A program made the position numbers and the translations under genes. A stretch of DNA of 64,000 bases from an uncultured delta proteobacterium (GTDB taxonomy: Bacteria > Desulfobacterota > Binatia > Bin18). How positions within the stretch are numbered: the stretch's first letter is position 1; the number at the start of each line of letters is the position of its first letter. Of the stretch, positions 2,991 through 14,617 are shown piece by piece. The DNA lies in assembly GCA_963733195.1 (NCBI GenBank), contig CAVTCR010000028.1:1-64000 (forward strand), written 5' to 3'. The notes beneath the pieces were generated by a model that was not told where the DNA came from, searched no databases, and saw nothing but the letters and a program-made list of their open reading frames with translations.

Positions 2991-3353
2991 GGTTGTGTCG
3001 CAACTTTTCCCTTGATGAGGATTTCGCTATACTTCTCGCCTGATCATGAGGGGAAGGAAAAGTAGGCGGCATGATGAACTTTAAGGGGAGCCAATTCGAG
3101 CGGGAGATCATCATGTGGGCAGTACAGTGGTATATAGCCTATCCGATTTCCTATCGGCAACTTGAGGAAATGATGAGCGAGCGGGGTGTAGCTGTCGATC
3201 ACTCCACGCTCAACCGTTGGGTGAATACAAATACGCCCCAGAGTTCGAGAAAGCGTTCCGTCGCCAACAGTACCCCGTGGGCCGGAGCTGGCGGATGGAC
3301 GAAACCTATAGTGATGATCTCGCTCGTCGACAGTTGGAAATTGCGACAGAGCC
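2991..3353 (+). mobile_element. Internally deleted IS6-family element with both terminal inverted repeats
   Basis: IRL GGTTGTGTCGCAACTT (2991-3006) and IRR AAATTGCGACAGAGCC (3338-3353) match at 13/16. Encodes only the transposase N-terminus (FKGSQFEREII...VDHSTLNRWV...GRSWRMDETY). Confidence 0.85.
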
Positions 3354-3510
3354 TCTTCCAGCACGGCTGCAGCCGATTCGTCAACTGCGCTCGTTCTTCG
3401 ACTAAGTGGGTCCGATAGCGAGTCAGATCGCGCAGCTGCCGTTGGGCGGGGGAGGGAATGAAACTGCTGCGAATCAAGCCATGCCGTAACAGGTCCGCAA
3501 TCCATTCCGC
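3354..3510 (-). pseudogene. IS110-family transposase fragment
   Basis: WIADLLRHGLIRSSFIPSPAQRQLRDLTRYRTHLVEERAQLTNRLQ. Truncated at the IS6 right IR. Confidence 0.75.
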
Positions 3511-3891
3511 TCAGCCGATAAATCGCCGCTTCATAAAGACGAGTGCTTCATTAAGTCTGATTATTCTGGCCTTCCGCTCATTGTTCAGGCGGACTGAACA
3601 TTTTGTTCAATCATTTGTTACGCCTCTTAGGGTGGCGGCGGTGACGAGATAAATGATGGTGCTTTCGGAGCTGGATTACCCAGGAGCTTACACATCGTAA
3701 CGGTAAGGTAAGACTCGAAGTTGGGTTAGGCTACGAAAAGCGGCAATGCTTACCATTCTTATTGGCCAGCCTTATTGGTGTTAGGCTGCTGGCTCACTAT
3801 TCGATCACCGAGTGTTATCAGTAAGGAAGGGAACATGATATGGCCACGCGAAACTGTAGACGAACTCTACGACCTATGAGGAGGAGAACTC

Positions 3892-6426
3892 ATGGCTAAA
3901 CCGTCCAAATCTACTAAGGAAAAAAAGCCAGCGGTCAAAACTGCTCGGCGGAGACGCTCAGCGACTAAAGCGAACCCTGCAACCGGATCAACAACCAAAA
4001 ATTCGCTTCGCATTGCCTACACTCAGCCAGTTTCGGTCAATCCACCAAAGGCAATAACGAAAACCTCACTAACGGTTGCGGCAGGTGCGGCTCCTGAGGT
4101 CCAGACGATCATTTACATTCACGGAATCGGCAACAAACCGCTTGCTTCTGTTCTCAAGTGTCAATGGGACTCGGCATTGTTTAACGTTCAACTTGGCGAC
4201 CGCAGCCGCATGGCCTATTGGGTCAACCGAGACTATTATCCGGTTCCTTCCGACGAAACCTGCGCAGGTGGAGATTTAGTGCAAGTCGATGACGACGAGG
4301 TCACAACTCGGGCTATCATGGCGCAGGCCGCAGGGCGACCAACAAACGAGCAAGAAGCAATCGAAAATGAAATCACTGCGCTGACCGAGGATAAGGCCAG
4401 ACAAGAATGGCTGCGATTGCTCGCGAATAAGATGGTCGCGAAGGCTCTTGCTGACGAGGAAACCATCAAAAAAAGAATCAGGGAAACGACTGGCGTGAGT
4501 GCCAAGGTACTACCGTTGCCTGGGTTTCTCAGGCGTCTGATTACGCAGAAACTCACACGCGCCTTTCTGCGGGATGTTAATGACTTTTTCTTCCATCCTG
4601 ACAGACGGCAGGCGATGCAAGAAAGTCTGGTGGACCGCCTCAACGCTGGCGGTGGCCCATTCGTGGTGATCGCGCATAGTCAGGGGTCAATGATTGCTTA
4701 TAACGTCTTACGCCACCTCACAAAGGCCGACTGCGACGTGCGACTCTTTCTCACTATCGGTTCACCGCTAGGGTTGACAGAGGTGCAAGATCTTTTGCGC
4801 CAGTTCCCTGGTGGGGTATTGGGCGTGCCCGGATGTGTGACCCGCTGGGTCAATGTGGCCGAGTGGCTTGATCCAATAGCAGCTGACCACGACATCTCGA
4901 ATGATTTTACACCAGCAGGAGCAATTGAAAACTTTGATGGATTTCTGTTAAACCCTGACGCCCCTCTGCATCCACACTCGGCAACTGGCTATCTTCAAAG
5001 TGACCCAGTCCGACAGGTAGTCCGTGAAGTCGTAGGGAATGCCTTCGCGCAAGCAGTCGCTAGCACGATCGTTACCAAAGATCTGGTTGAGGATTTGGAG
5101 AATAGCTTCCGTGAGCAGCGCCATGTCGCATTAATACAGCTTACTACGCCTGCTGAGCCTGGCCCACTTGGTCAAACGACGATTTCTGGGGTCCGTACCC
5201 AATTGGTCAAAACTATCTCGGACATGGTCATCGAGAGCGGCGACAGTGTGGACGCAGCTGGCATCGAGCCGCTCAAACGCTTTGTGTCGGCAAAACTCAC
5301 ACGGCTTGAGATTGAACGGTTACGCACGCAGTATAAAGACCTGCAGATTACCAGGGTCTGGCGGGACGCTACGAAGAGAGCGCTCATCTACCAATCCACC
5401 AATACTATTCAGGTCCGCCCTGCTAACCTCGGTTATGGGGCCTTGGGGAAAGATATCGGCTGGGCGGTGCTGGATACTGGCATTTGTGCTGACCATCCGC
5501 ACTTCGAACAATACAAAAACATCATAGCGCAATGGGATTGTACAAAACCAGGGAGGCCAAGTGAGCTGTCGCCCCTCCAAAGCGCGCAACTGGATAAGAA
5601 TGGCCATGGTACTCATGTCGCTGGAATTATTGCCGGTCGGTATGAACTTCCCATGGAGAATGGTGGTCCAGATGTTTTGTTCTCAGGTATGGCACCAGCA
5701 GCAAAATTGTACGGATTTAAAGTTCTTGATGACCAAGGAAGGGGACAAGATTCATACATCATCAAAGCGCTCGACTACATCGCTGATCTTAATGAGGAAG
5801 CAGGACGGTTGGTAATTCAGGGGATCAACCTTAGCCTCGGCGGAGCCTTCGATCCCAGTGTATATGGTTGCGGTCACACGCCACTCTGCCAGGAACTGCG
5901 CCGACTGTGGGGTCAAGGAGTACTGCTCTGTCTAGCGGCTGGGAATGAAGGATATGCGCTCTTACAGGCAGTGGAAGGAAAGGTCCCAGCGAACATGGAC
6001 CTCTCAATGGGCGACCCGGCCAACCTTGATGAAGCAATTGCCACCGGGTCGATTCACAAGTCGAACCCTCATACGTTCGGCGTCTCGTACTTCTCTTCCA
6101 GAGGGCCCACTGCAGATGGCAGAAAAAAACCAGACCTGGTTGCGCCGGGAGAGCAGATTCTTTCTGCTTATCACAATTACAATCGTCGGAAGCCAGTAAA
6201 GCAAAGAATAGCCAGTGATCTCTATGTTGAGATGAGCGGTACCAGTATGGCGTGTCCACACGTCTCAGGACTGTTGGCGGCGTTTCTTTCCATACGGCGA
6301 GAGTTCATTGGCTACCCCAACCAAGTGAAAACGATCCTGCTGGAGAACTGCACCGATCTCAACCGCGATGTGTATATCCAAGGACGAGGCATGCCGAATC
6401 TGATTAAGATGTTAACAAGCAGTTAA
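3892..6426 (+). CDS. Alpha/beta-hydrolase (lipase-like) fused via a prodomain to an S8 subtilisin-like serine protease; no signal peptide
   Basis: Hydrolase motifs YIHGIG, AHSQGS, TIGSPLG, WLDPIA, HPHSATGY. S8 triad VLDTGI / NGHGTHVAGII / SGTSMACPHVSG, plus AAGN. Basic N-terminus without a hydrophobic core. RBS GAGGAGGAG. Confidence 0.9.
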   Translation: MAKPSKSTKEKKPAVKTARRRRSATKANPATGSTTKNSLRIAYTQPVSVNPPKAITKTSLTVAAGAAPEVQTIIYIHGIGNKPLASVLKCQWDSALFNVQLGDRSRMAYWVNRDYYPVPSDETCAGGDLVQVDDDEVTTRAIMAQAAGRPTNEQEAIENEITALTEDKARQEWLRLLANKMVAKALADEETIKKRIRETTGVSAKVLPLPGFLRRLITQKLTRAFLRDVNDFFFHPDRRQAMQESLVDRLNAGGGPFVVIAHSQGSMIAYNVLRHLTKADCDVRLFLTIGSPLGLTEVQDLLRQFPGGVLGVPGCVTRWVNVAEWLDPIAADHDISNDFTPAGAIENFDGFLLNPDAPLHPHSATGYLQSDPVRQVVREVVGNAFAQAVASTIVTKDLVEDLENSFREQRHVALIQLTTPAEPGPLGQTTISGVRTQLVKTISDMVIESGDSVDAAGIEPLKRFVSAKLTRLEIERLRTQYKDLQITRVWRDATKRALIYQSTNTIQVRPANLGYGALGKDIGWAVLDTGICADHPHFEQYKNIIAQWDCTKPGRPSELSPLQSAQLDKNGHGTHVAGIIAGRYELPMENGGPDVLFSGMAPAAKLYGFKVLDDQGRGQDSYIIKALDYIADLNEEAGRLVIQGINLSLGGAFDPSVYGCGHTPLCQELRRLWGQGVLLCLAAGNEGYALLQAVEGKVPANMDLSMGDPANLDEAIATGSIHKSNPHTFGVSYFSSRGPTADGRKKPDLVAPGEQILSAYHNYNRRKPVKQRIASDLYVEMSGTSMACPHVSGLLAAFLSIRREFIGYPNQVKTILLENCTDLNRDVYIQGRGMPNLIKMLTSS

Positions 6427-6445
6427 GTATATTTCCGAAGCGATG

Positions 6446-6509
6446 CAGCCTGGATGAAGCGAAGCGCAACCAGAGCACCTATAGTTTGTTCCCGAATTGC
6501 ATCCGGGCT
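6446..6509. repeat. Degenerate REP-like palindromic element
   Basis: GCAGCCTGGATGAAGCGAAGCGCAA...CCCGAATTGCATCCGGGCT; the two ends are complementary. Confidence 0.45.
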
Positions 6510-6831
6510 TCTCTAAGGAGTAACTTGTCAACCCCAAGGGGTCGGCGGGGCTGGCGGCTGATCCGCGAGAGGGAGACGTTGGATATCAGCAGGCAAGCTG
6601 AACATTGCTATTTGCTCAATAAGAGACAATGCCTGAGGGACACTACCGCACTTAAACGAAACAGGCTCCAAATCATATAGGTCCCCCTTATATTAGGATC
6701 TTTTCCGTATCGAGAGGGAGTAAGCAAAGCGGGCGAGTGCCCGTTAGTCAAATTATTTAAAGTGACAGAAAGTGATATTCTAAAGAGTCCGTATATCTTT
6801 GGAATGGAAATTCAGGAGGAGGGCATACATC

Positions 6832-8349
6832 ATGGCAGCAAAAGCGCCATTGCAGCAATTCATCCTGCTTCCGACACGAGGCTTGCGCGCTCAGGAAACC
6901 ACTGCGAGTGCATCAGTCAAAGCTTTTTTTACCTCTATAAATCCTGAGGCGAAGACTCCCAAAGGGAGATCTGTCAAGGTTTCTGGAGCCCCCAAACTTC
7001 AGATGCGCGTTCTTGACTCGATCGGTAAAAATGGCGCGAAGTTAGTAGAATTACCTGCCGAATCGCTGTCTGATCTCAAAGCTGCTCAGCCAGGAATGCG
7101 AATTGTCCCTATTACATACTACTACCCGGCTGTGGTGCAGCGGCCAACAGTTCGGCCAATGCTTAAGGCGTTCGTTGCGGCTGCATCTGCAACTAAAATC
7201 ACCATAAAAGTTGTCTCGCGCGCGGATGGCAAGCCAGTGGCTGGAGCAGACGTAATTGCTTTCACGAATTTTAGCCAAAGGTTGGGAGCGCAAGGGAAGA
7301 CTAACAAGTCAGGCCGGGTAAGCTTATCGCTCGGGACTGCAGTGAGAAAGTTGGACCGGCTCTATATCTACCCGGAAGTCGGATTTTACAGCTTGCTGAG
7401 AACGAGCATTACCATCTCCTCACAAATGGAGTTGGGACTGCGTCCAGTAGACCTCACGTTTAGTAACTTTTCAGATGCACTGCGGCACTTTTATGGGAAC
7501 ACTGCTGACGATATTGGACAAGGAGTGAAAGTTGCAGTGATAGATACCGGTATTGCGATAAATCACCCCGACCTCAGTGTAGATGGAGGAATGAATACTG
7601 TACTAGGAGAAGACTCTGGTGATTACGATGACAATGGACATGGGCATGGAACCCATGTTGCAGGGATCATTTCCGCGCATGGTTTGCCTCCGACTGGTGT
7701 CCGAGGTGTCGCTCCTGCTGTGACGTTACGTAGCTATCGGGTTTTCGGTGAGGACGAGGAAGGAGCGAGTAATTTTGCTATTGCAAAAGCGATAGATCAA
7801 GCCATTACTGATAAGTGTGATTTGATCAACATGAGCTTGGGCGGCGGTCCTGATGACGCTGCAGTTCGGTCAGCGATTGCGGACGCTCGTGCCCAAGGTT
7901 GCTTAGTTATTGTCGCTAACGGTAATGATTATCGCGAACCTGTGAGTTTTCCTGCTTCGGATTCTCTATCCCTTGCGGTTTCCGCAATGGGACGTCTTGA
8001 AACATTTCCTTCCGACTCTACTGCGGTGGGGGATATAGACGTCCCACGAGGGAAAGACCCGAAAAACTTCGTTGCCGCGTTTTCCAATATTGGACCGGAG
8101 ACTGACTTGATAGGCCCAGGAGTAGATATTGTTTCCACCGTACCCGGGGGGTATGCTCCTATGAGTGGAACGTCGATGGCTTGTCCAGCAGTAACTGGAA
8201 TTGCCGCGAGACTCTTAGCTGCTCGACCGAAAATTCTCGCGATGAGCCGCGATCGAGACCGGTCCGATGAAATGGCCAAACTTGTACTGAAGACGGCTGT
8301 TGCACAGGGCTTTGGCCCTGACTTTGAGGGACAAGGACGTCTCCCCTAG
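6832..8349 (+). CDS. S8 subtilisin-like serine protease with N-terminal prodomain and Ig-like domain; no signal peptide
   Basis: Triad VIDTGI / GHGHGTHVAGII / SGTSMACPAVTG. Beta-rich KITIKVVSRADGKPVAGADV segment. ATG 6832 after AGGAGGAGG. Confidence 0.92.
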   Translation: MAAKAPLQQFILLPTRGLRAQETTASASVKAFFTSINPEAKTPKGRSVKVSGAPKLQMRVLDSIGKNGAKLVELPAESLSDLKAAQPGMRIVPITYYYPAVVQRPTVRPMLKAFVAAASATKITIKVVSRADGKPVAGADVIAFTNFSQRLGAQGKTNKSGRVSLSLGTAVRKLDRLYIYPEVGFYSLLRTSITISSQMELGLRPVDLTFSNFSDALRHFYGNTADDIGQGVKVAVIDTGIAINHPDLSVDGGMNTVLGEDSGDYDDNGHGHGTHVAGIISAHGLPPTGVRGVAPAVTLRSYRVFGEDEEGASNFAIAKAIDQAITDKCDLINMSLGGGPDDAAVRSAIADARAQGCLVIVANGNDYREPVSFPASDSLSLAVSAMGRLETFPSDSTAVGDIDVPRGKDPKNFVAAFSNIGPETDLIGPGVDIVSTVPGGYAPMSGTSMACPAVTGIAARLLAARPKILAMSRDRDRSDEMAKLVLKTAVAQGFGPDFEGQGRLP

Positions 8350-8360
8350 AGGAAAGATCA

Positions 8361-8591
8361 ATGGCCCGCTTTATTTTGCGCTATCAAGGAAAAGGACCAA
8401 AACCTCAACAGAACATTGAGCAAATCCGTTCTTTAGACAATATTTCCATAATTGATGATTCCTCTCCGCGTATGATCTTGGTTGATGCCCCTGAGGATGA
8501 ACTGAAGGCGCTCGTTGACTCGATGCCGGATTGGATTGTAAGCCAAGAGAGAACATATCATTTACCCGACCCACGCCCCAGGCTTCGGTAA
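8361..8591 (+). CDS. Small protein resembling a subtilisin propeptide (inhibitor I9-like)
   Basis: 76 aa, starts 11 bp after the S8 stop, has an RBS. Pattern FIL...IIDD...LVDAPEDELKAL...P...Y...RPRLR parallels the prodomain of the upstream S8 (by-eye alignment). Confidence 0.65.
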   Translation: MARFILRYQGKGPKPQQNIEQIRSLDNISIIDDSSPRMILVDAPEDELKALVDSMPDWIVSQERTYHLPDPRPRLR

Positions 8592-8957
8592 AATAGAAGA
8601 ATAAGTATAGTCTAGAACTTATCCCTAAACCTCTTCCGCCCCGAAAACCTGGATTCCCGCTGTTGCGGAAATGACGGAAAATCGGGCACAAGCACGTCAT
8701 GCCCGCGCAGCCTTCCCAAGTTAAACCGGACTTGTCCAGGTTCTACCGGGAGCGTGCTCCAGACAGAGGTTTTGGACGACTTATTCTGCTCCGTACTACC
8801 CAACACCAAAAGCTCATCAGTGGCTGCCAAGACAGCTGCTCCAATTTCATGGGTACCGAGAGCATAACCGATCGTGAGTTTTTGAATCTCGATCTGATCT
8901 CTGAGTTGTACTTCCATCGATATGGATGCCCCTCCTTGTGGCGTCTCTGTGATCCTT

Positions 8958-9107
8958 GATGTCTTGTTGTGTGTCGACTCGACAACATCGCTGTAGAGAA
9001 CTGTGTGTGCAGCGCCCATTCCAAGAGTGTACCTTGAAGAATCGCCTGTGCGGCACGAAGGTGACCAGCCCCGGAGGACATAGACACAGTAAAACCTTAC
9101 ACATCAT
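8958..9107 (-). pseudogene. Truncated MGDG-synthase/UgtP-like glycosyltransferase N-terminus
   Basis: KVLL..SMSSGAGHLRAAQAI directly after the lipid kinase; the frame decays within ~50 codons. Confidence 0.5.
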
Positions 9108-10002
9108 GAACTTTCCCTACTCTCACACGAAGTGCTGCTGGATGTAGACGGACAGTTAGGCTGACTTCGGCATTGGTGACGGGCTCGCCATCAACATGGA
9201 GACAAAGTAATCGCTGCCCTGTGATCGTCACCTGGGTGATACGACGCATCTCTACATTGGTACTATTGGCAATGGTCCCATTGAAAAGGCGTCGAGCCTC
9301 CCAGAGCGTGGTGAGTGGCGAGCGCGTTTGGATGACTACCAGATCAAGGTGACCATCACTGAGACTCGCGTCGGGAGCGACAATAGCCCCATTGCCGTAT
9401 TGCCGGGAGTTGGCTAGGGCGATGAGCAAGGCTGGGTGATGTCTCGTTTCTCCGTCGATGGTGATGGTATACTCTTCAGGCTGGTAAGAAAGCAGTTCTC
9501 GTGCGGCTATCGTGACATAGGAGAGCAAGCCGCGCCGCCCCTTAGGTCGATTGTTAAACATTGCGGTCACATGAGCATCGAAGCCGATTCCAGCGGTATT
9601 AAAGAACAACTTTCCACCAATTTCTCCAACATCCATGGTCCGGTCAGTACCGTGGAGTGCGCTCTTTAACGCCCGTACGGGATCAAACGGAATATGAAGT
9701 TCTCGTGCGAGGCCATTGCCAGAACCAGCGGGAATCAGACCAAGTGTGGTGGAGCTGAATGCCAGCGCACGACCAACCTCATTCATAGTGCCGTCACCGC
9801 CCCAAGCGAAAACAAGCGAGGTCTTTTGCTCAACTGCCTCGCATGCAAGTTCGTAGGCATGTCCGGGACGCTCGGTAATCCGCACTTCGTGCTCTATTCC
9901 CGTAGACGAAAGAAGGTCCTTTGCTAACTCCGCTCGACTGCGCGCGACCTCCGGGTGTCCATGGGTCCCGGAGATAGGATTGATGATAACGACGACACGC
10001 AT
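9097..10002 (-). CDS. Diacylglycerol/lipid kinase family protein (YegS/DagK-like)
   Basis: INPISG, GGDGT, PAGSGNGLAR, GIGFDA, YGNG and VDGE motifs. Confidence 0.93.
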   Translation of the reverse strand: MRVVVIINPISGTHGHPEVARSRAELAKDLLSSTGIEHEVRITERPGHAYELACEAVEQKTSLVFAWGGDGTMNEVGRALAFSSTTLGLIPAGSGNGLARELHIPFDPVRALKSALHGTDRTMDVGEIGGKLFFNTAGIGFDAHVTAMFNNRPKGRRGLLSYVTIAARELLSYQPEEYTITIDGETRHHPALLIALANSRQYGNGAIVAPDASLSDGHLDLVVIQTRSPLTTLWEARRLFNGTIANSTNVEMRRITQVTITGQRLLCLHVDGEPVTNAEVSLTVRLHPAALRVRVGKVHDV

Positions 10003-10017
10003 AAGAGGGCAACACGA

Positions 10018-12180
10018 CTATGTGTCCAGGCGCGTAAAGGGAAGGGTAAAGAAAAACGTGCTCCCACTTTTAAGAGTACTCTCGACCCACACATTTCCCT
10101 GGTGAGCATGAATGATCTCTCGCACAAGTGCGAGTCCTAAACCGGTCCCACCAATGCCGCGCGTGTCAGAATTGTCTACGCGAAAAAACTTAGTAAAGAG
10201 CTTGGGAATTGCTTCTGGCGGAATACCGACACCGTGATCCTTGACCCACACCATAACTCGGTGTGCTTCTGCTTCCGCACCGACCTCAATCGGTCCCCCC
10301 TGAGGGGAGAATTTAATGGCATTCGATACCAGATTGACCAGAACTTGGCGTAGGCGATTGGCATCACCGCGAACCCGCGGTAGTAATGACGGCACTTCCA
10401 ATCGAAGAGAGTGAGGTCCTCCTATTGTCTCGAAGAGTTCAACACTTTCGCGAAGTACGGATTCCAGCGCAAGTGGTGCAAACACATAGGGATGATGGCC
10501 ACCTTCTATCCGTTGGAGATCGAGAAAGTCATCAATCAGGTGTGTCAAGCGTATGGCTTCACTATGAATGACATCCAGAAGTTCGCGTTGTTTTTCAAAG
10601 GTGAAATTTCGTTTCAACATCAACTCGGCAAAGCCACGAAGACTGGCTAACGGCGTGCGGAGTTCATGACTGACGGTTGAGATTAACTCATCCTTCACGC
10701 GTTCGACTTCCTTCCGTTCGGTAATATTTCGGAAGGTGACGACGGCACCAACGACCTCACCATGCTCGTTGCGTATAGGTGTACTCAGGTATTCGACTGG
10801 AAAATTCGTTCCGTCTTTACGCCAGTAGACCTCTTCAGTGATCCGGACGCTTCTTCCATCATGCAGCGTGTGGAGCATGGGGCAGGCTTCGGCAGGGTAT
10901 AAGGTACCATCAGCTTTGTGATGATGTATCCGTTCGTGCAGCGGTTGGCCTAGCAACTCGAAGACTTCATATCCCAGTAGGTGCGCTGCCGTAGGATTCA
11001 CAAATGTAGCTCTCCCGTGTTCATCCACCCCGAAAATTCCTTCACCAGCTGAGTTTAGAATTAACTCGTTCTGCTGACGCAAGCGTTCAAGCGCTGCTTC
11101 TGCATGTTTCCGTTCCTCTATTTCTGCTTGTAACGCTGCATTAGCTTGCACCAAGGCAACAGTACGCTCCTCTACTCGCTGTTCTAACTCACGATGAGCC
11201 CACTGTAACGCTTCTTCTGCACGTTTACGGGCAGTGATGTCCTGCACTGTTCCTTCATAGTAGAGCGGAGCCCCATGCTGGTCACGGACGAGCCGAGCGG
11301 TTTCAGAAATCCAAATTCGCTCACGGGTTTTGTGGCGGTATACTTCAGACTCGAAGTCCGTCACACTGTCCCGTCCTGCCAAGATGTGTTGAAACTCTTC
11401 ACGTCGGTGTGGATCGACGTACCACTCCGCGGCAATATTGCTCACAGCTGGCAGCATTTCTGCTTCACTCTCGTAGCCATTCAATTTCACTAAGGCAGGG
11501 TTGGCACGAAGTTGACGACCATCGAGACTCGAACGGTAAATACCCTCGACCGCATTCTCAAAGATGGTGCGATACTCATGCTCGGCTGCCCGTGCTGCTT
11601 CTTCTGCTCGCTTTCGCTCAATGACCTCTGTGCGTAAGGCCTCATTCGCCCGCGCTAAGTCAGCAGTGCGCTCTTGGACTCGTTGCTCCAGTGCAGCGTG
11701 CGCTTGCCGCAAGGCTTCCTCAGCATGCTTCCGCTCCGTGATGTCGCGATAGATCCCAAGAATACCAACCAACATACCTTCCCGGTCGCGCAGGAAACGC
11801 GTGCGAGCCTCGACTGCCACTGTGCGCCCATTGGATCGTAGCAACTCAATCTCAAACGTGGATGGAAGTGGCTCGCCAGCGAGCGCCCGCTGTATACGCT
11901 CTTCCCCTAACGCAACAGATGCGGGCGTAAGAAACTGGATAAACGGGCGGCCAACAATCTGTTCTCGCGACAAACCAATAAGACGCTCCGCACTACGATT
12001 GACGCTCGTCAGCGTTCCGTCCAACGCAATGAATGCGATGGCATCGTTGGCGTTCTCGAAGATCGTACGGTAGTGCTCTTCGTTTTGAGGAAGGGGCCTC
12101 GCTTGTGCCCCTTTTAGTAAGTCGAAAGCTGAATGCTTATCCCCCGCTCGCTGTGAGACATCCCTGTTGCTCACACTCAT
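10018..12180 (-). CDS. Cytoplasmic multi-PAS sensor histidine kinase
   Basis: Three PAS/PAC units, H-box SHELRTPL, NLVSNAIKF, GTGLGL. Confidence 0.95.
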   Translation of the reverse strand: MSVSNRDVSQRAGDKHSAFDLLKGAQARPLPQNEEHYRTIFENANDAIAFIALDGTLTSVNRSAERLIGLSREQIVGRPFIQFLTPASVALGEERIQRALAGEPLPSTFEIELLRSNGRTVAVEARTRFLRDREGMLVGILGIYRDITERKHAEEALRQAHAALEQRVQERTADLARANEALRTEVIERKRAEEAARAAEHEYRTIFENAVEGIYRSSLDGRQLRANPALVKLNGYESEAEMLPAVSNIAAEWYVDPHRREEFQHILAGRDSVTDFESEVYRHKTRERIWISETARLVRDQHGAPLYYEGTVQDITARKRAEEALQWAHRELEQRVEERTVALVQANAALQAEIEERKHAEAALERLRQQNELILNSAGEGIFGVDEHGRATFVNPTAAHLLGYEVFELLGQPLHERIHHHKADGTLYPAEACPMLHTLHDGRSVRITEEVYWRKDGTNFPVEYLSTPIRNEHGEVVGAVVTFRNITERKEVERVKDELISTVSHELRTPLASLRGFAELMLKRNFTFEKQRELLDVIHSEAIRLTHLIDDFLDLQRIEGGHHPYVFAPLALESVLRESVELFETIGGPHSLRLEVPSLLPRVRGDANRLRQVLVNLVSNAIKFSPQGGPIEVGAEAEAHRVMVWVKDHGVGIPPEAIPKLFTKFFRVDNSDTRGIGGTGLGLALVREIIHAHQGNVWVESTLKSGSTFFFTLPFTRLDT

Positions 12181-12294
12181 AAGCTGTACCTCCCTCCTGA
12201 CCCTCCTCAGGGAACTCAGCTCGTACAGTCCCTCTACTATAGGTCACCCTATGAAAGATAGGGGGTGTCCTCTAACGATATTCTCCTCTGATTG

Positions 12295-14617
12295 TTACTC
12301 CACCTGATAGGACAAGCTGTCAGAGCGACCAGCATTATCAACGACCACAAGTCGATGAATGCCGAGCCGCAGTGGAAGCAGGAGCTTTGCTTCAGGCGTG
12401 CCACTACGGATGAGCGTACCATTTTCATACCAGTAGAGACGCGTAGCAGAGGCGCCTCCTTGAATACTGAGAGGAATCTGCTGATACTCCCCAGGAGCAT
12501 CGCGGCGCAAATGATAGGGAGTATCAGCGTTCGGCGAAACGATTTTGAGCGGCTCGCTGGCGGGGATATCGGTGCATAGCGAACTGAGACGTGGAACAGA
12601 AGGAATTGAGTGTCCTTGAGCCTGCTTCCATGCCAGCAGCTCCGGAGGATAGGTCATGATTACTTCTGCATGGTGAGGACGCTGAGCAAGGCATGATCCT
12701 GCAAGCTGCTCTCCGGTCTCTGTGTCAACAAAAATACGACGGTGATACGAACAGAGTGAGAGTTTCGAGCGTCCTGGCAGCGAAGGAACAGTATCCTGGA
12801 GAGGGCAGTATGGTCCGGCTAACTCATGGCTCTGCTCGCAGATGCGGACTGTGCCCAACTGCAAATTCTTGGAATACGGCAGTTGCGCTGTTCCGCCTTC
12901 GATGACACGGAATAGATCGAATAACAGTGGGGCAGCATGCTCAGCACCAGAAATGCCCTTTTGGCCGTGACCATCTACGTTCCCGACCCACACACCAATC
13001 GTGTAACGGGCTGAAAACCCGAGACTCCAGGCATCGCGGTGGCCATACGAGGTGCCGGTTTTCCAGGCGACAACTGGGACATCGCGAGTCAGATGCCACG
13101 CACGAGGAAGGTCTGGACGTTGCAGGCCGGTTAAAGTCCTTGTCACCAGATGTGCAGACTCAGGGGAGAATAATAGCTCTTGAGCACCTTCGACTGCTGA
13201 TGCGTTGTTCTGTATACGGACTGGTCGATGGACTCCTCCGGTTGCGAGTGTAGCGTACAGATTTGTCAGATCGAGCAACGTAACCTCGCCGCTTCCGAGA
13301 ATAAGCGGTAAGCCATACGTGGTTGCAGGACGATCAAGCGTAACCAAGCCGCCTCGTCGTAACAGCGTCTGAAACTCTGCTAACCCAATCTGGGCGAGTA
13401 AGCGAACGGCAGGAGCATTCAACGAGCGGACTAAGGCTTCACGTACTGTGACTAATCCGCTGTACTGTCCATCATAATTTTCGGGCACATAGCCGGCGAA
13501 GTCGGTTGGAATATCGAGCAAGTACGAGTTGGGAATAATCAACCCGGCATCCATGGCCATAGCGTACAGAAACGGTTTGAGGGTAGAGCCTGGCGAGCGA
13601 CGGGCAACGGCGGTGTTGACTTGTCCCTGTGTCGCTGTGGCAAAGAAATCCGGTGATCCGACGAGCACGCGTACCGCCCGGCTGTCATTCTCAATCACGA
13701 CCACCGCGGCACTACTAATGCCACGGTCACGCAACCCGGCGATGCGGGCAGCGACTTGGGTTTCAGCGATCTGTTGGAGATGTCGGTCAAGGGTCGTAAC
13801 GATCTTCGGCTCTCGGGGCAAGCGGTCTACCACTAGCTGACAGAAGTGTGGAGCAACGAAGGGAGAACGCCAGATGGGAGTATGAACCGGATGGCGGCGG
13901 GCGTCAGCGATCGCTTCAGGAGAGAAGATCTGCCGGACAGCCAGTTGCTGAAGGACGCGATTTCTTACCGTAAGCGCGGTCTGCGGATTCCGTGCAGGAT
14001 TGTAACTATTAGGCGAGCGTGGGAGTACCGATAGCAGTGCTGCCTCACCCAGAGAGAGCTGTGCCGGGATTTTACCAAAGTAGACGGTGCTTGCGGCACC
14101 GATCCCTTCGACATTGCCTCCATAGGGTGTGAGGTTGACATACAGCTCAAGCAGTTCCTCTTTTGTGAAGTGTCGCTCGAGTTGTAGTGCACGAAACATC
14201 TCTTGCCCTTTTGCCCAGACCGTCCTGGGCTTGGGTTCTGCTAACCGCGCGATCTGCATAGTGATAGTTGAGGCTCCAGAGACGATTCTGCCACGGCGCA
14301 GGTTTGCCCACATTGCGCGCACGACAGCAAAAGGGTTCACCCCCGGATGGGAATAGAACCAGCGATCTTCTGACGCAATGAGCGTTTGGATAAAGACTGG
14401 CGCAACTTCATTAAGAGTCACAGGCAAGCGCAGTTGTTCGTCAGGCGGGAGAAAGATGCGCAGCGGCACCTCTGCTCGGTCTGTGACTACAACCGCCGGC
14501 CGGCGGTATAAGGTTGCGGTCGGGAAAGGGAAGAGCGAGTCAAGAATGCCGAAACAGAAATACATCCCCCCACAGAGCAGGAGACTCACAAGTGTAGTTT
14601 TATATGCCGTGCCGCAT
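12295..14617 (-). CDS. pbpC: Penicillin-binding protein 1C
   Basis: Transglycosylase motifs EDRWFYSHPG and GASTITMQ; transpeptidase STLK, SLN, KTGT; adjacent to alpha-2-macroglobulin. Start uncertain (ATG ~14617 is out of frame; ORF track uses 14589). Confidence 0.93.

Follow-up and report, generated by a model that had tools for sequence, protein, structure and literature searches.

The locus described here occupies positions 3892-8591 of a 64,000-nucleotide stretch of DNA (the window) from an uncultured delta proteobacterium (contig CAVTCR010000028.1). It consists of three co-oriented genes within 4.7 kb, here called P1, P2 and P3. We find that the locus is made up of two independent mobile units lying side by side, P1 alone and P2 together with P3. 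P1 encodes an alpha/beta hydrolase fused to a subtilase of peptidase family S8 (domain fusions are written below with a double colon) and is interpreted as a protease-gated hydrolase effector. P2 encodes a second cytoplasmic subtilase, for which the small protein P3 is a predicted, prodomain-like inhibitor. We put the probability of this combined reading at about 0.6; its structural half is the surer, its functional half the less so.

The genes and the domains recognized in them are as follows (aa, amino acids).

3892-6426, + strand: P1, 844 aa, a single-gene unit, hydrolase::prodomain-like::S8 fusion
3892-4095, + strand: basic low-complexity N-terminal tail of P1 (residues 1-68), located where relatives P0027 and P0050 have their gasdermin domain and linker
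4096-5091, + strand: alpha/beta-hydrolase domain of P1 (residues ~69-400), from a weak Abhydrolase_6 match, invariant residues, a structure model and structure matches
5119-5385, + strand: prodomain-like beta-alpha-beta-alpha-beta unit of P1 (residues ~410-498), predicted from AlphaFold2 secondary structure
5464-6366, + strand: S8 catalytic domain of P1 (D529, H572, N685, S785)
6832-8349, + strand: P2, 505-aa cytoplasmic subtilase, numbered from the ATG at 6832
6832-7140, + strand: N-terminal prodomain-like domain of P2 (residues 1-103), conserved across 11 homologues
7177-7335, + strand: putative beta-sandwich insert of P2 (residues ~116-168) between prodomain and catalytic domain, from weak Pfam matches
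7516-8301, + strand: S8 catalytic domain of P2 (D238, H272, N365, S448)
8361-8591, + strand: P3, 76 aa, stand-alone prodomain/I9-like protein, predicted cognate inhibitor of P2

The open reading frame (ORF) of P1 is preceded by the ribosome-binding site GAGGAGGAG. The longest ORF at P2 (6799-8349, 516 aa) opens with a TTG codon at 6799 that lacks a ribosome-binding site, and the ATG at 6832, which sits behind AGGAGG, is the likelier start. P1 and P2 are separated by 405 bp, and P3 begins 11 bp past the P2 stop, in agreement with the 76-aa gene that an original prediction, made from the sequence of the window, had placed after the second subtilase. The same prediction described two co-oriented subtilases with intact Asp/His/Ser triads and no signal peptides, and Pfam, the sequence motifs and hydropathy bear this out. 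No stretch resembling a signal peptide or a membrane-spanning segment is present in P1, P2 or P3; in P1 and P2 the Kyte-Doolittle mean reaches at most ~1.0 over 12 residues within the first 70 residues, and does not exceed 1.33 over 19 residues anywhere.

P1 and P2-P3 are separate units

P1 loci from seven genomes (42-76% identity; Blastocatellia, Methylocystis, Rhodospirillales and four Verrucomicrobiota) were compared, together with an eighth taken from the window's own phylum. Neither P2 nor P3 is found near P1 in any of these eight other loci. There is also no conserved neighbor around P1 among them, except that two near-identical loci share theirs.

Full-length homologues of P2 were found in 13 genomes, 10 metagenome contigs and 5 plasmids. 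An ORF of the P3 family (76-95 aa) lies directly downstream of P2 in all 13 genome loci, which include representatives from Acidimicrobiales, Chitinophaga, Pedobacter and Williamsia. The metagenome scan returned 80 loci, 10 with the P2-type N-terminal domain and 70 with the S8 domain only. Two of the ten end inside P2, and P3 follows P2 in each of the eight that have downstream sequence; a P3 homologue is present in none of the 70 S8-only loci. P3 also follows P2 in the five plasmid loci (Variovorax, the Ti plasmid of Agrobacterium tumefaciens, Rhizobium leguminosarum, Paracoccus and Rhizobium sp. CIAT894), in the Variovorax plasmid although the gene table has no gene there. Overall, every one of the 26 assessable loci, which come from several phyla and from plasmids, keeps the pairing. 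The P1 hydrolase is absent from the 13 genome loci and from all 80 metagenome loci. Among P2-type loci this check covered 23 (13 genomic and 10 metagenomic), the five plasmid loci standing outside it. In no locus examined outside the window does P1 adjoin P2-P3, and hhalign detects no relationship between the P3 profile and the P1 family (probability 0.3%).

Because P1 loci lack P2 and P3, P2 and P3 are always paired, and 405 bp separate P1 from P2, we conclude that the locus contains two units. The original prediction had proposed a single three-gene module, working as a zymogen cascade in which gene 3 restrains the hydrolase. The module is rejected on the neighborhood comparisons of P1 and P2 loci (0/8 P1 loci with P2 or P3, 0/23 P2-type loci with the P1 hydrolase) and on the gap between P1 and P2. 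The cascade is likewise not supported, given the missing co-conservation and a P3 profile unlike the P1 family. Of the co-conservation of all three genes that had been envisaged, the part joining P2 to P3 stands (26/26), and the part joining P1 to that pair does not (0/8).

Promoter and terminator counts over 3400-9200 do not rise above those of shuffled sequence and are uninformative on transcription units. Among the short, low-depth contigs of sediment and soil metagenomes, which cover at most 0.19 of the stretch per run, none bridges P1 to P2. Two 151-nt contigs from a soil metatranscriptome library match 8189-8493, the end of P2 and the start of P3, with zero differences, which is too little for claiming transcription.

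P3 as a predicted inhibitor of P2

The catalytic domain of P2 matches PF00082 strongly (E 6e-48, 164 bits against a cut-off of 21.8), and its triad is invariant in 14 homologues. The S8 domains of both P1 and P2 resemble intracellular subtilisins in the PDB, and in each the Asp, His and Ser of the triad follow in that order and are accompanied by an oxyanion Asn (N685 in P1, N365 in P2). P2 also matches the NCBIfam PatA/PatG cyanobactin proteases weakly, with 54.7 bits where the cut-off is 421. The insert that precedes the catalytic domain contains invariant Gly residues and matches two Pfam families below cut-off (bMG3, E 1e-3; CarboxypepD_reg, E 9e-3).

The N-terminal domain of P2 is the part that connects it to P3. 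By hhalign the P3 profile aligns to this domain over 40 columns (E 7e-5, probability 63%), which makes P3 a free-standing paralogue of the prodomain-like region of P2. The P3 family is large and unnamed. Built from 17 sequences, its profile retrieves 745 representative clusters (50% identity) at E <= 1e-3 and 297 at E <= 1e-10, and P3 itself has no match in Pfam, NCBIfam or PADLOC. Among 150 listed members nearly all are 65-143 aa long, with one of 193 aa. Aligned members share a conserved core and have in their tails the motif PE..Y.[VL]P, in which Glu63 and Pro69 are invariant.

In its AlphaFold2 model (pLDDT 89.7) P3 is predicted to form an open sandwich with the order beta-alpha-beta-beta-alpha-beta. 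A VIA search of 48,161 chains places first POIA1 bound to subtilisin BPN' (Z 7.1, root mean square deviation 2.6 A over 67 residues). Other top matches are the BPN' prosegment (7.0), a fungal alkaline protease prodomain (6.8), PCSK9 prodomains (6.6-6.7) and the TKS propeptide (6.6), so that subtilase prodomains or POIA1 make up seven of the top eight rows; the EpiP, pro-subtilisin E, cucumisin and Tk-SP prodomains appear lower down. The annotated ESM Atlas clusters nearest to P3 are subtilase prodomains only (scores 0.80-0.84), and these serve as leads only.

A complex modeled from P2 residues 205-506 and P3 has an ipSAE of 0.85, compared with 0.17 for the best of three controls. Solved complexes reach the mark applied to this score in 58 of 80 cases, mismatched pairs in 2 of 110. 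At least 76% of the contacts are common to the runs, and the pLDDT of the partners is at least 83. In the predicted interface, P3 residues 63-71 contact the catalytic His, the Ser region and the oxyanion Asn of P2, and the face of the P3 beta-sheet packs on two P2 helices. Binding of this kind, in which the sheet lies against surface helices while the tail reaches into the active site, is the classical mode of subtilisin prodomains. We therefore regard P3 as a putative prodomain/I9-like inhibitor of P2, in the sense that it would work like one and not that it is a proven member of the I9 family. The free prodomain mimic of the original prediction is thereby supported, as judged from paralogy to the P2 N-terminal domain, a prodomain-like predicted fold and a modeled position in the P2 active site.

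P1 as a probable fused protease-effector

The N-terminal half of P1 has the nucleophile elbow and the Ser-Asp-His triad of an alpha/beta hydrolase. The oxyanion pair H77-G78, the nucleophile Ser263 in AHSQG, Asp327/332 and His362 are invariant in 29 aligned homologues. Pfam Abhydrolase_6 matches residues 241-386 with 25 bits, just below the 26.3 cut-off. An AlphaFold2 model of residues 60-520 (pLDDT 79) predicts an alpha/beta-hydrolase core with a long helical insert. This insert (~residues 113-205) is variable, follows the second strand and precedes a conserved LPLPGFLR motif. The best VIA match of the hydrolase is lysosomal phospholipase A2 (LPLA2; Z 13.7, 183 residues, root mean square deviation 3.5 A), and the next are YdeN-like hydrolases, the DDHD phospholipase domain, acyl-protein thioesterases and lipases. 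Foldseek gives weak lipase and PGAP1 matches, none at E <= 0.001. The invariant triad and the fold match confirm that one of the subtilases is fused to a lipase-like hydrolase, as had been predicted.

The hydrolase is followed by a predicted beta-alpha-beta-alpha-beta unit (residues 351-432 of the model, ~410-491 of P1) that ends ...RALIY directly before the S8 domain. It is a putative prodomain, read by eye from its position and its C-terminal Tyr by comparison with subtilisin prodomains. The S8 domain matches PF00082 over residues 525-825 (E 5.8e-44, 151 bits against a gathering cut-off of 21.8), and its motifs are nearly invariant in 29 homologues. The PADLOC 'subtilase' model PDLC03014 matches P1 from end to end (E 7.5e-78, 260.7 bits, model positions 1-391 of 391). 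Neither Pfam nor the structure model reveals a further domain beyond the tail, the hydrolase, the prodomain-like unit and the S8 domain. Tails of P1 homologues are rich in K, R, S, T and A and ~25-140 aa long.

More than 1000 homologues of P1 are present in a large protein collection, in a search that covered proteins of up to 1477 aa. Among these, 120 listed proteins align to 87-100% of the query with 55-93% identity; their sources include Acidobacteriota, NC10 and Alphaproteobacteria. Two of them, P0027 and P0050, are ~250 residues longer at the N-terminus, and the extension is a bacterial gasdermin domain (PADLOC bGSDM PDLC02986, E 1.3e-73 and 9.1e-64, model positions 2-256/257). They are 64% and 60% identical to P1, respectively, over 96-99% of its length, and are thus single polypeptides of 1085 and 1111 aa with the architecture gasdermin::hydrolase::prodomain-like::S8. 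Their scores with PDLC03014 are 257 and 274.7 bits, compared with 260.7 for P1. The last ~40 residues of the P1-type tails align to the linker of these gasdermin-fused forms. The original prediction had stated that no gasdermin is present here, and this is upheld: PDLC02986 has no match in the host genome (93% complete), and in a tblastn search of the window the gasdermin part of P0027 and P0050 matched through the linker only.

Bacterial gasdermins carry a palmitoylated N-terminal cysteine. The N-terminus of P0027 reads MAC.

P1-type hydrolases also occur as stand-alone proteins of 293-345 aa in Streptomyces, Actinoplanes and Kitasatospora, with every invariant motif kept. Their neighbors were counted in the best 80 of 271 matching stretches in species-representative genomes, with one locus (L116) as reference, by BLAST (E <= 1e-10) on ORFs taken from stop to stop. 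Of the 80 loci, 69 contain a homologue of a STAND NTPase of 1022 aa (AAA_16/NACHT-like), 63 one of a trypsin-like peptidase, 62 one of a 393-aa ORF of no assigned family and 36 one of an Endonuclease_NS gene, often upstream. The conserved actinobacterial operon (loci L108-L187, for example L116:7001-14308) comprises a P1-type hydrolase, the 393-aa ORF, a STAND NTPase of ~1020 aa and a trypsin-like peptidase. One locus of the set encodes an EAD1-trypsin protein (L127) and another a trypsin::Endonuclease_NS fusion (L138).

The closest named P1 locus, from a metagenome-assembled genome of Blastocatellia (L004), carries directly upstream of the P1 homologue a gene (4109-7732) whose 1207-aa product combines WD40 repeats with a caspase-like Peptidase_C14 domain at its C-terminus. 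The two genes have the same orientation and are separated by 226 bp. No homologue of the WD40-caspase gene is found in the window, the other P1 loci or the window's genome.

On account of the gasdermin-fused relatives, the STAND/trypsin operons and the full-length match to PDLC03014, we interpret P1 as a fused protease-effector. It is probably a self-contained protein combining protease and death effector without a sensor, a latent self-destruct device. Whether it serves in biological conflict is evenly balanced in our judgment. The abortive-infection or toxin function suggested by the original prediction thus holds up in part: the hydrolase::S8 fusion is kin to protease-activated death effectors, and a defense-island context is mostly absent.

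A further S8 protein was noted on a plasmid of Rhizobium sp. SU303 (L192:5695-8724). It is 563 aa long, matches P1 residues 425-841 at 38% identity and lacks the hydrolase; a 442-aa hypothetical protein with no Pfam match is encoded 10 bp downstream. The two may be another protease-effector pair.

Distribution and genomic context

Both units are sporadic. We searched 40 relatives of the host genome (2 of the same genus, 22 of the same family and the rest of the same order and class) at E <= 1e-20. P1 is present in none of the 40. Full-length P2 is likewise absent, and a single genome has a 36%-identical match to the S8 part only. In an even phylum sample of 400 other genomes P1 was matched in two, once over its full length at 59% identity and once in the S8 part only. 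Relatives of P2 are carried on conjugative and other plasmids. The patchy occurrence, combined with high identity across phyla, indicates horizontal spread, and the absence of P1 and P2 from the 40 relatives fits the earlier impression that the block was acquired.

The genes around the two units were surveyed by Pfam scans of ten neighbors of P1 loci and ten of P2-P3 loci. The exceptions to a mainly housekeeping or unrelated setting are a patatin-like gene (L006), the WD40-caspase gene (L004), trypsin::Endonuclease_NS fusions (L191, L195) and a CHAT protein with an S8 peptidase (L191). In both the A. tumefaciens Ti plasmid (L191) and Rhizobium sp. CIAT894 (L195) the 700-710-aa trypsin::Endonuclease_NS gene follows P2-P3 in the same orientation, and the Ti plasmid additionally encodes, upstream on the opposite strand, a CHAT protein of 1157 aa and another S8 peptidase. 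A search of 35 sources located the trypsin-nuclease fusion at one further locus, plus one nuclease-only match (L022).

The defense-system models of PADLOC returned only the single-protein 'subtilase' and weak IetS matches. The defense-island context for which the original prediction had proposed to look is mostly not seen, neighbors being mainly housekeeping or unrelated. A toxin-antitoxin-like or defense role of P2-P3 is accordingly tentative and on balance doubtful, and a conflict role is better supported for P1.

Comparison with known systems

The bacterial gasdermin-protease systems (Johnson et al. 2022; preprint 10.1101/2021.06.07.447441) may involve a protease of the P1 type: the prodomain-plus-S8 part of P1 matches the PADLOC 'subtilase' model over its full length, and, judging from neighboring accession numbers, PDLC03014 may be part of the PADLOC gasdermin system. 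The resemblance extends to P0027 and P0050, which carry an N-terminal bGSDM domain, and both arrangements are cytoplasmic and protease-gated. However, P1, the window and the 93% complete genome contain no gasdermin; in P1 an alpha/beta hydrolase takes the effector place of the pore-former, and there are no sensor repeats.

Evans et al. 2025 (bioRxiv, PMC12642450) describe a protease-associated alpha/beta-hydrolase that is a zymogen and becomes toxic after two cleavages. This LcHydrolase is paired with LcCaspase in Lysobacter capsici AZ78, and the cleavage sites lie in its N-terminal third. As far as that account goes, P1 is similar in linking a lipase-like alpha/beta hydrolase to a protease, here by fusion. 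Its hydrolase homologues stand beside the same kinds of partner, namely proteases, a STAND NTPase and the WD40-caspase of L004, and its variable insert falls in the N-terminal third of the hydrolase, where the two cleavages are placed. P1 differs from the modules so described in that its protease is a fused S8 subtilase with a prodomain, not a caspase-like or trypsin-like enzyme, and in that no sensor is attached to it or conserved nearby.

Stand-alone inhibitors of the I9 type include POIA1 of Pleurotus and the propeptide-like protein of Plasmodium SUB1 (PMC6993865). P3 resembles such inhibitors in being a free protein of ~76 aa with the order beta-alpha-beta-beta-alpha-beta, POIA1 being its top structural match, and in its predicted binding, where the sheet lies against surface helices of the protease and the tail occupies the active site. 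However, P3 is a cytoplasmic protein of bacteria whose gene shares an operon with that of its protease; it has no sequence match to PF05922, is a paralogue of the N-terminal domain of its target, and has a tail that extends past the predicted P1 position (the subsite, not the gene) with an invariant proline. Other stand-alone I9 inhibitors are yeast PBI2 and Arabidopsis SPI-1.

The defense pair IetAS consists of an AAA+ ATPase and an S8 protease. It shares with the present units an S8 protease in a possible conflict role and weak IetS matches (best E 6.5e-10). It is unlike them in domain architecture and in the score of the NCBIfam IteS model (24.5 bits against a cut-off of 900), and no AAA+ gene flanks our locus, as the original prediction had also noted.

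Listings and the opening parts of abstracts, with most subscription journals outside reach, describe no hydrolase::S8 or gasdermin::hydrolase::S8 fusion. Within the same limits, no bacterial operon-encoded I9-like inhibitor is described.

Proposed mechanisms

Genes, domains, conservation, predicted folds and the predicted interface are set out above; the activation steps, the toxicity and the anti-phage roles considered here for both units are what we infer. On this reading the locus consists of two unrelated, horizontally acquired cytoplasmic subtilase units that adjoin each other in the vicinity of insertion sequence (IS) scars. In P1, a latent hydrolase effector of the lipase/phospholipase type would be joined to an S8 protease that its own prodomain-like segment keeps in check. 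A trigger would relieve the block by the prodomain, and the protease, acting in cis or in trans, would then cleave inside the hydrolase's variable insert, at the prodomain junction, or both. The freed hydrolase would damage the cell, as part of abortive infection or of another conflict function.

P2 is a cytoplasmic subtilase that has its own prodomain-like domain at the N-terminus, and P3 is a stand-alone paralogue of that domain. P3 is predicted to bind mature P2 in the manner of a prodomain, its sheet on two surface helices and its C-terminal tail running through the catalytic cleft, so that P2 would stay inhibited. If P3 keeps P2 inhibited in this way, the pair would act as a protease-inhibitor pair of the toxin-antitoxin kind.

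A bolder joint reading, which we consider rather improbable, sees in P1-type proteins one-protein suicide devices with the prodomain as the guarded element, and in P2-P3 an unnamed, widespread toxin-antitoxin or defense pair. Removal of the P1 prodomain, by a phage factor, a stress protease or ion influx, would free the S8 protease. The protease would cut the hydrolase insert and, in proteins such as P0027, the gasdermin linker as well, and death would follow from lipid hydrolysis with or without pores. For P2-P3, loss of a labile I9-like antitoxin would free the cytoplasmic subtilase.

If P1 works as proposed, a protease-gated death effector can be a single polypeptide without a sensor, and the protease-hydrolase chassis also accepts a gasdermin (P0027, P0050), linking pore-forming and lipolytic effectors that have so far been studied apart. 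If the assignment of P3 is correct, P2-P3 extends the stand-alone prodomain-like inhibitors by a branch that is bacterial and encoded in operons. A family of 745 clusters of 'hypothetical proteins' that lies outside Pfam and NCBIfam would also gain a name and a testable function.

Alternative explanations

Several observations weigh against the combined reading. One relative 82% identical to P1 (P0003) and one 83% identical to P3 (P0125) share a source longest contig of 75,357 bases, so the adjacency of P1 to P3 may recur in close kin (a ~82% identical relative, one 75-kb contig). With respect to P3, Pfam Inhibitor_I9 (PF05922) is matched by none of the 17 family members at E <= 10, and the P3 profile matches no solved prodomain by sequence in the PDB. 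The VIA Z values of P3 (at most 7.1) fall within the chance range of small common folds, and it is the ranking of the chains that carries weight. The best Foldseek match of P3 is the Tk-subtilisin propeptide at E 0.05, with none at E <= 0.001. The score of the P2-P3 complex, for which the alignments were user-supplied, may reflect memory of solved subtilisin-prodomain complexes. With respect to P1, the gasdermin domain is present in only 2 of the 120 listed homologues and a sensor-protease neighbor in only one of the eight P1 loci. Unlike the characterized protease-effector modules, P1 has no recognizable sensor, and no relative of it was found on viral contigs. Its likeness to LcHydrolase is drawn from the description of that protein in PMC12642450. 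The neighbors of both units are mostly housekeeping or unrelated genes (purH, dnaB, Ham1, malate dehydrogenase, TonB receptor, ABC-F ATPase), and the usual defense-island signal is missing around both.

If all three genes formed one zymogen cascade, P2 would activate P1 or the reverse, the hydrolase would be freed and P3 would restrain the whole. The shared orientation within 4.7 kb, two cytoplasmic proteases with intact triads and the common 75,357-base longest contig of P0003 and P0125, by which the arrangement may recur in a close relative, all favor such a cascade. We nevertheless judge it very unlikely in view of the co-conservation missing from 8 P1 loci and 23 P2-type loci, the 405-bp gap, and a P3 profile that is related to the P2 N-terminal domain yet unrelated to the P1 family. 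A simpler alternative is ordinary intracellular proteolysis, in which P2-P3 would pair an inhibitor with a regulated protease for housekeeping or stress, comparable to the Bacillus intracellular subtilisins, and P1 would be a bifunctional lipid- and protein-processing enzyme, neither having a conflict function. Metabolic or housekeeping neighbors, defense models limited to 'subtilase' and weak IetS, and S8 domains resembling intracellular subtilisins of the PDB are what it would lead one to expect. However, a housekeeping role does not sit well with the sporadic occurrence (P1 in 0/40 relatives and 2/400 phylum genomes, full-length P2 in 0/40), with both units recurring in distant phyla at 40-60% identity and on plasmids, with gasdermin-fused relatives of P1 and hydrolase homologues in STAND/trypsin operons, or with the CHAT, trypsin and nuclease genes that flank P2-P3 on two Rhizobiaceae plasmids. 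We consider this alternative unlikely as a whole.

Two further alternatives concern P3 alone. Subtilisin prodomains are intramolecular chaperones that can also work in trans, and P3, with its prodomain fold and a predicted binding mode like theirs, could be an intermolecular folding chaperone or maturation factor for P2 instead of a standing inhibitor. However, P2 has its own conserved N-terminal prodomain-like domain, which makes a second chaperone seem redundant, and the P3 tail with its invariant Pro69 runs past the predicted active-site contact, as would suit a pseudo-substrate rather than a product. A chaperone role is in our view distinctly improbable. That P3 is a substrate or precursor peptide processed by P2, for instance one like the ribosomally synthesized and post-translationally modified peptides (RiPPs), is suggested by the position of a small ORF directly downstream of an S8 protease and by the weak match of P2 to PatA/PatG (54.7 bits against 421). 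However, conservation extends along all of P3 and leaves no hypervariable core, the predicted structure is a compact domain (pLDDT 89.7), and modification enzymes are not conserved in the neighborhood. The whole-length conservation and compact predicted fold lead us to reject the RiPP-precursor reading, which is hardly credible, and inhibition of P2 by P3 remains the function that we prefer.

Flanking sequence

Features outside the two units are the following.

3071-3418, + strand: N-terminal fragment (scar) of an IS6-family transposase, by tblastn against annotated plasmid IS6 transposases (E 2e-24)
3199-3477, - strand: fragment (scar) of an IS110-family (DEDD) transposase, Pfam PF01548 (E 3.7e-6, 27.2 bits)
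9097-10002, - strand: YegS/DAGK-type lipid kinase (Pfam), the next recognizable gene downstream of P3

Both scars upstream of P1 had been called in the original prediction and were recognized again here, the IS110 match covering profile positions 113-149 only and scoring just below Pfam's 29-bit cut-off. The truncated glycosyltransferase that it placed downstream was not recovered. Pfam recognizes nothing in the four ORFs from 8612 to 9107; the one of them compared with plasmids, 8612-9019 (- strand), has no match there either, and the next recognizable gene is the lipid kinase.

Translations read by eye suggest a multi-PAS histidine kinase at 10018-12180 (- strand) and a PBP1C-type penicillin-binding protein at 12295-14589 (- strand); the genes downstream (9097-14589, - strand) resemble ordinary chromosomal genes. 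On the other side, adjoining the IS scars, an FMO/Baeyer-Villiger-like flavin-dependent monooxygenase (912-2569, - strand) is split over at least 2-3 overlapping frames (ORFs 1919-2569, 1636-2244 and 912-1820) and is probably a frameshifted pseudogene or the result of assembly errors.

Just past P3, a stretch of ~35 nt (8643-8679) occurs in many short contigs with differing flanks, in four of four runs and with a summed depth of at most 43, which suggests a short repeated element. It adjoins a minus-strand terminator-like hairpin at 8683-8705.

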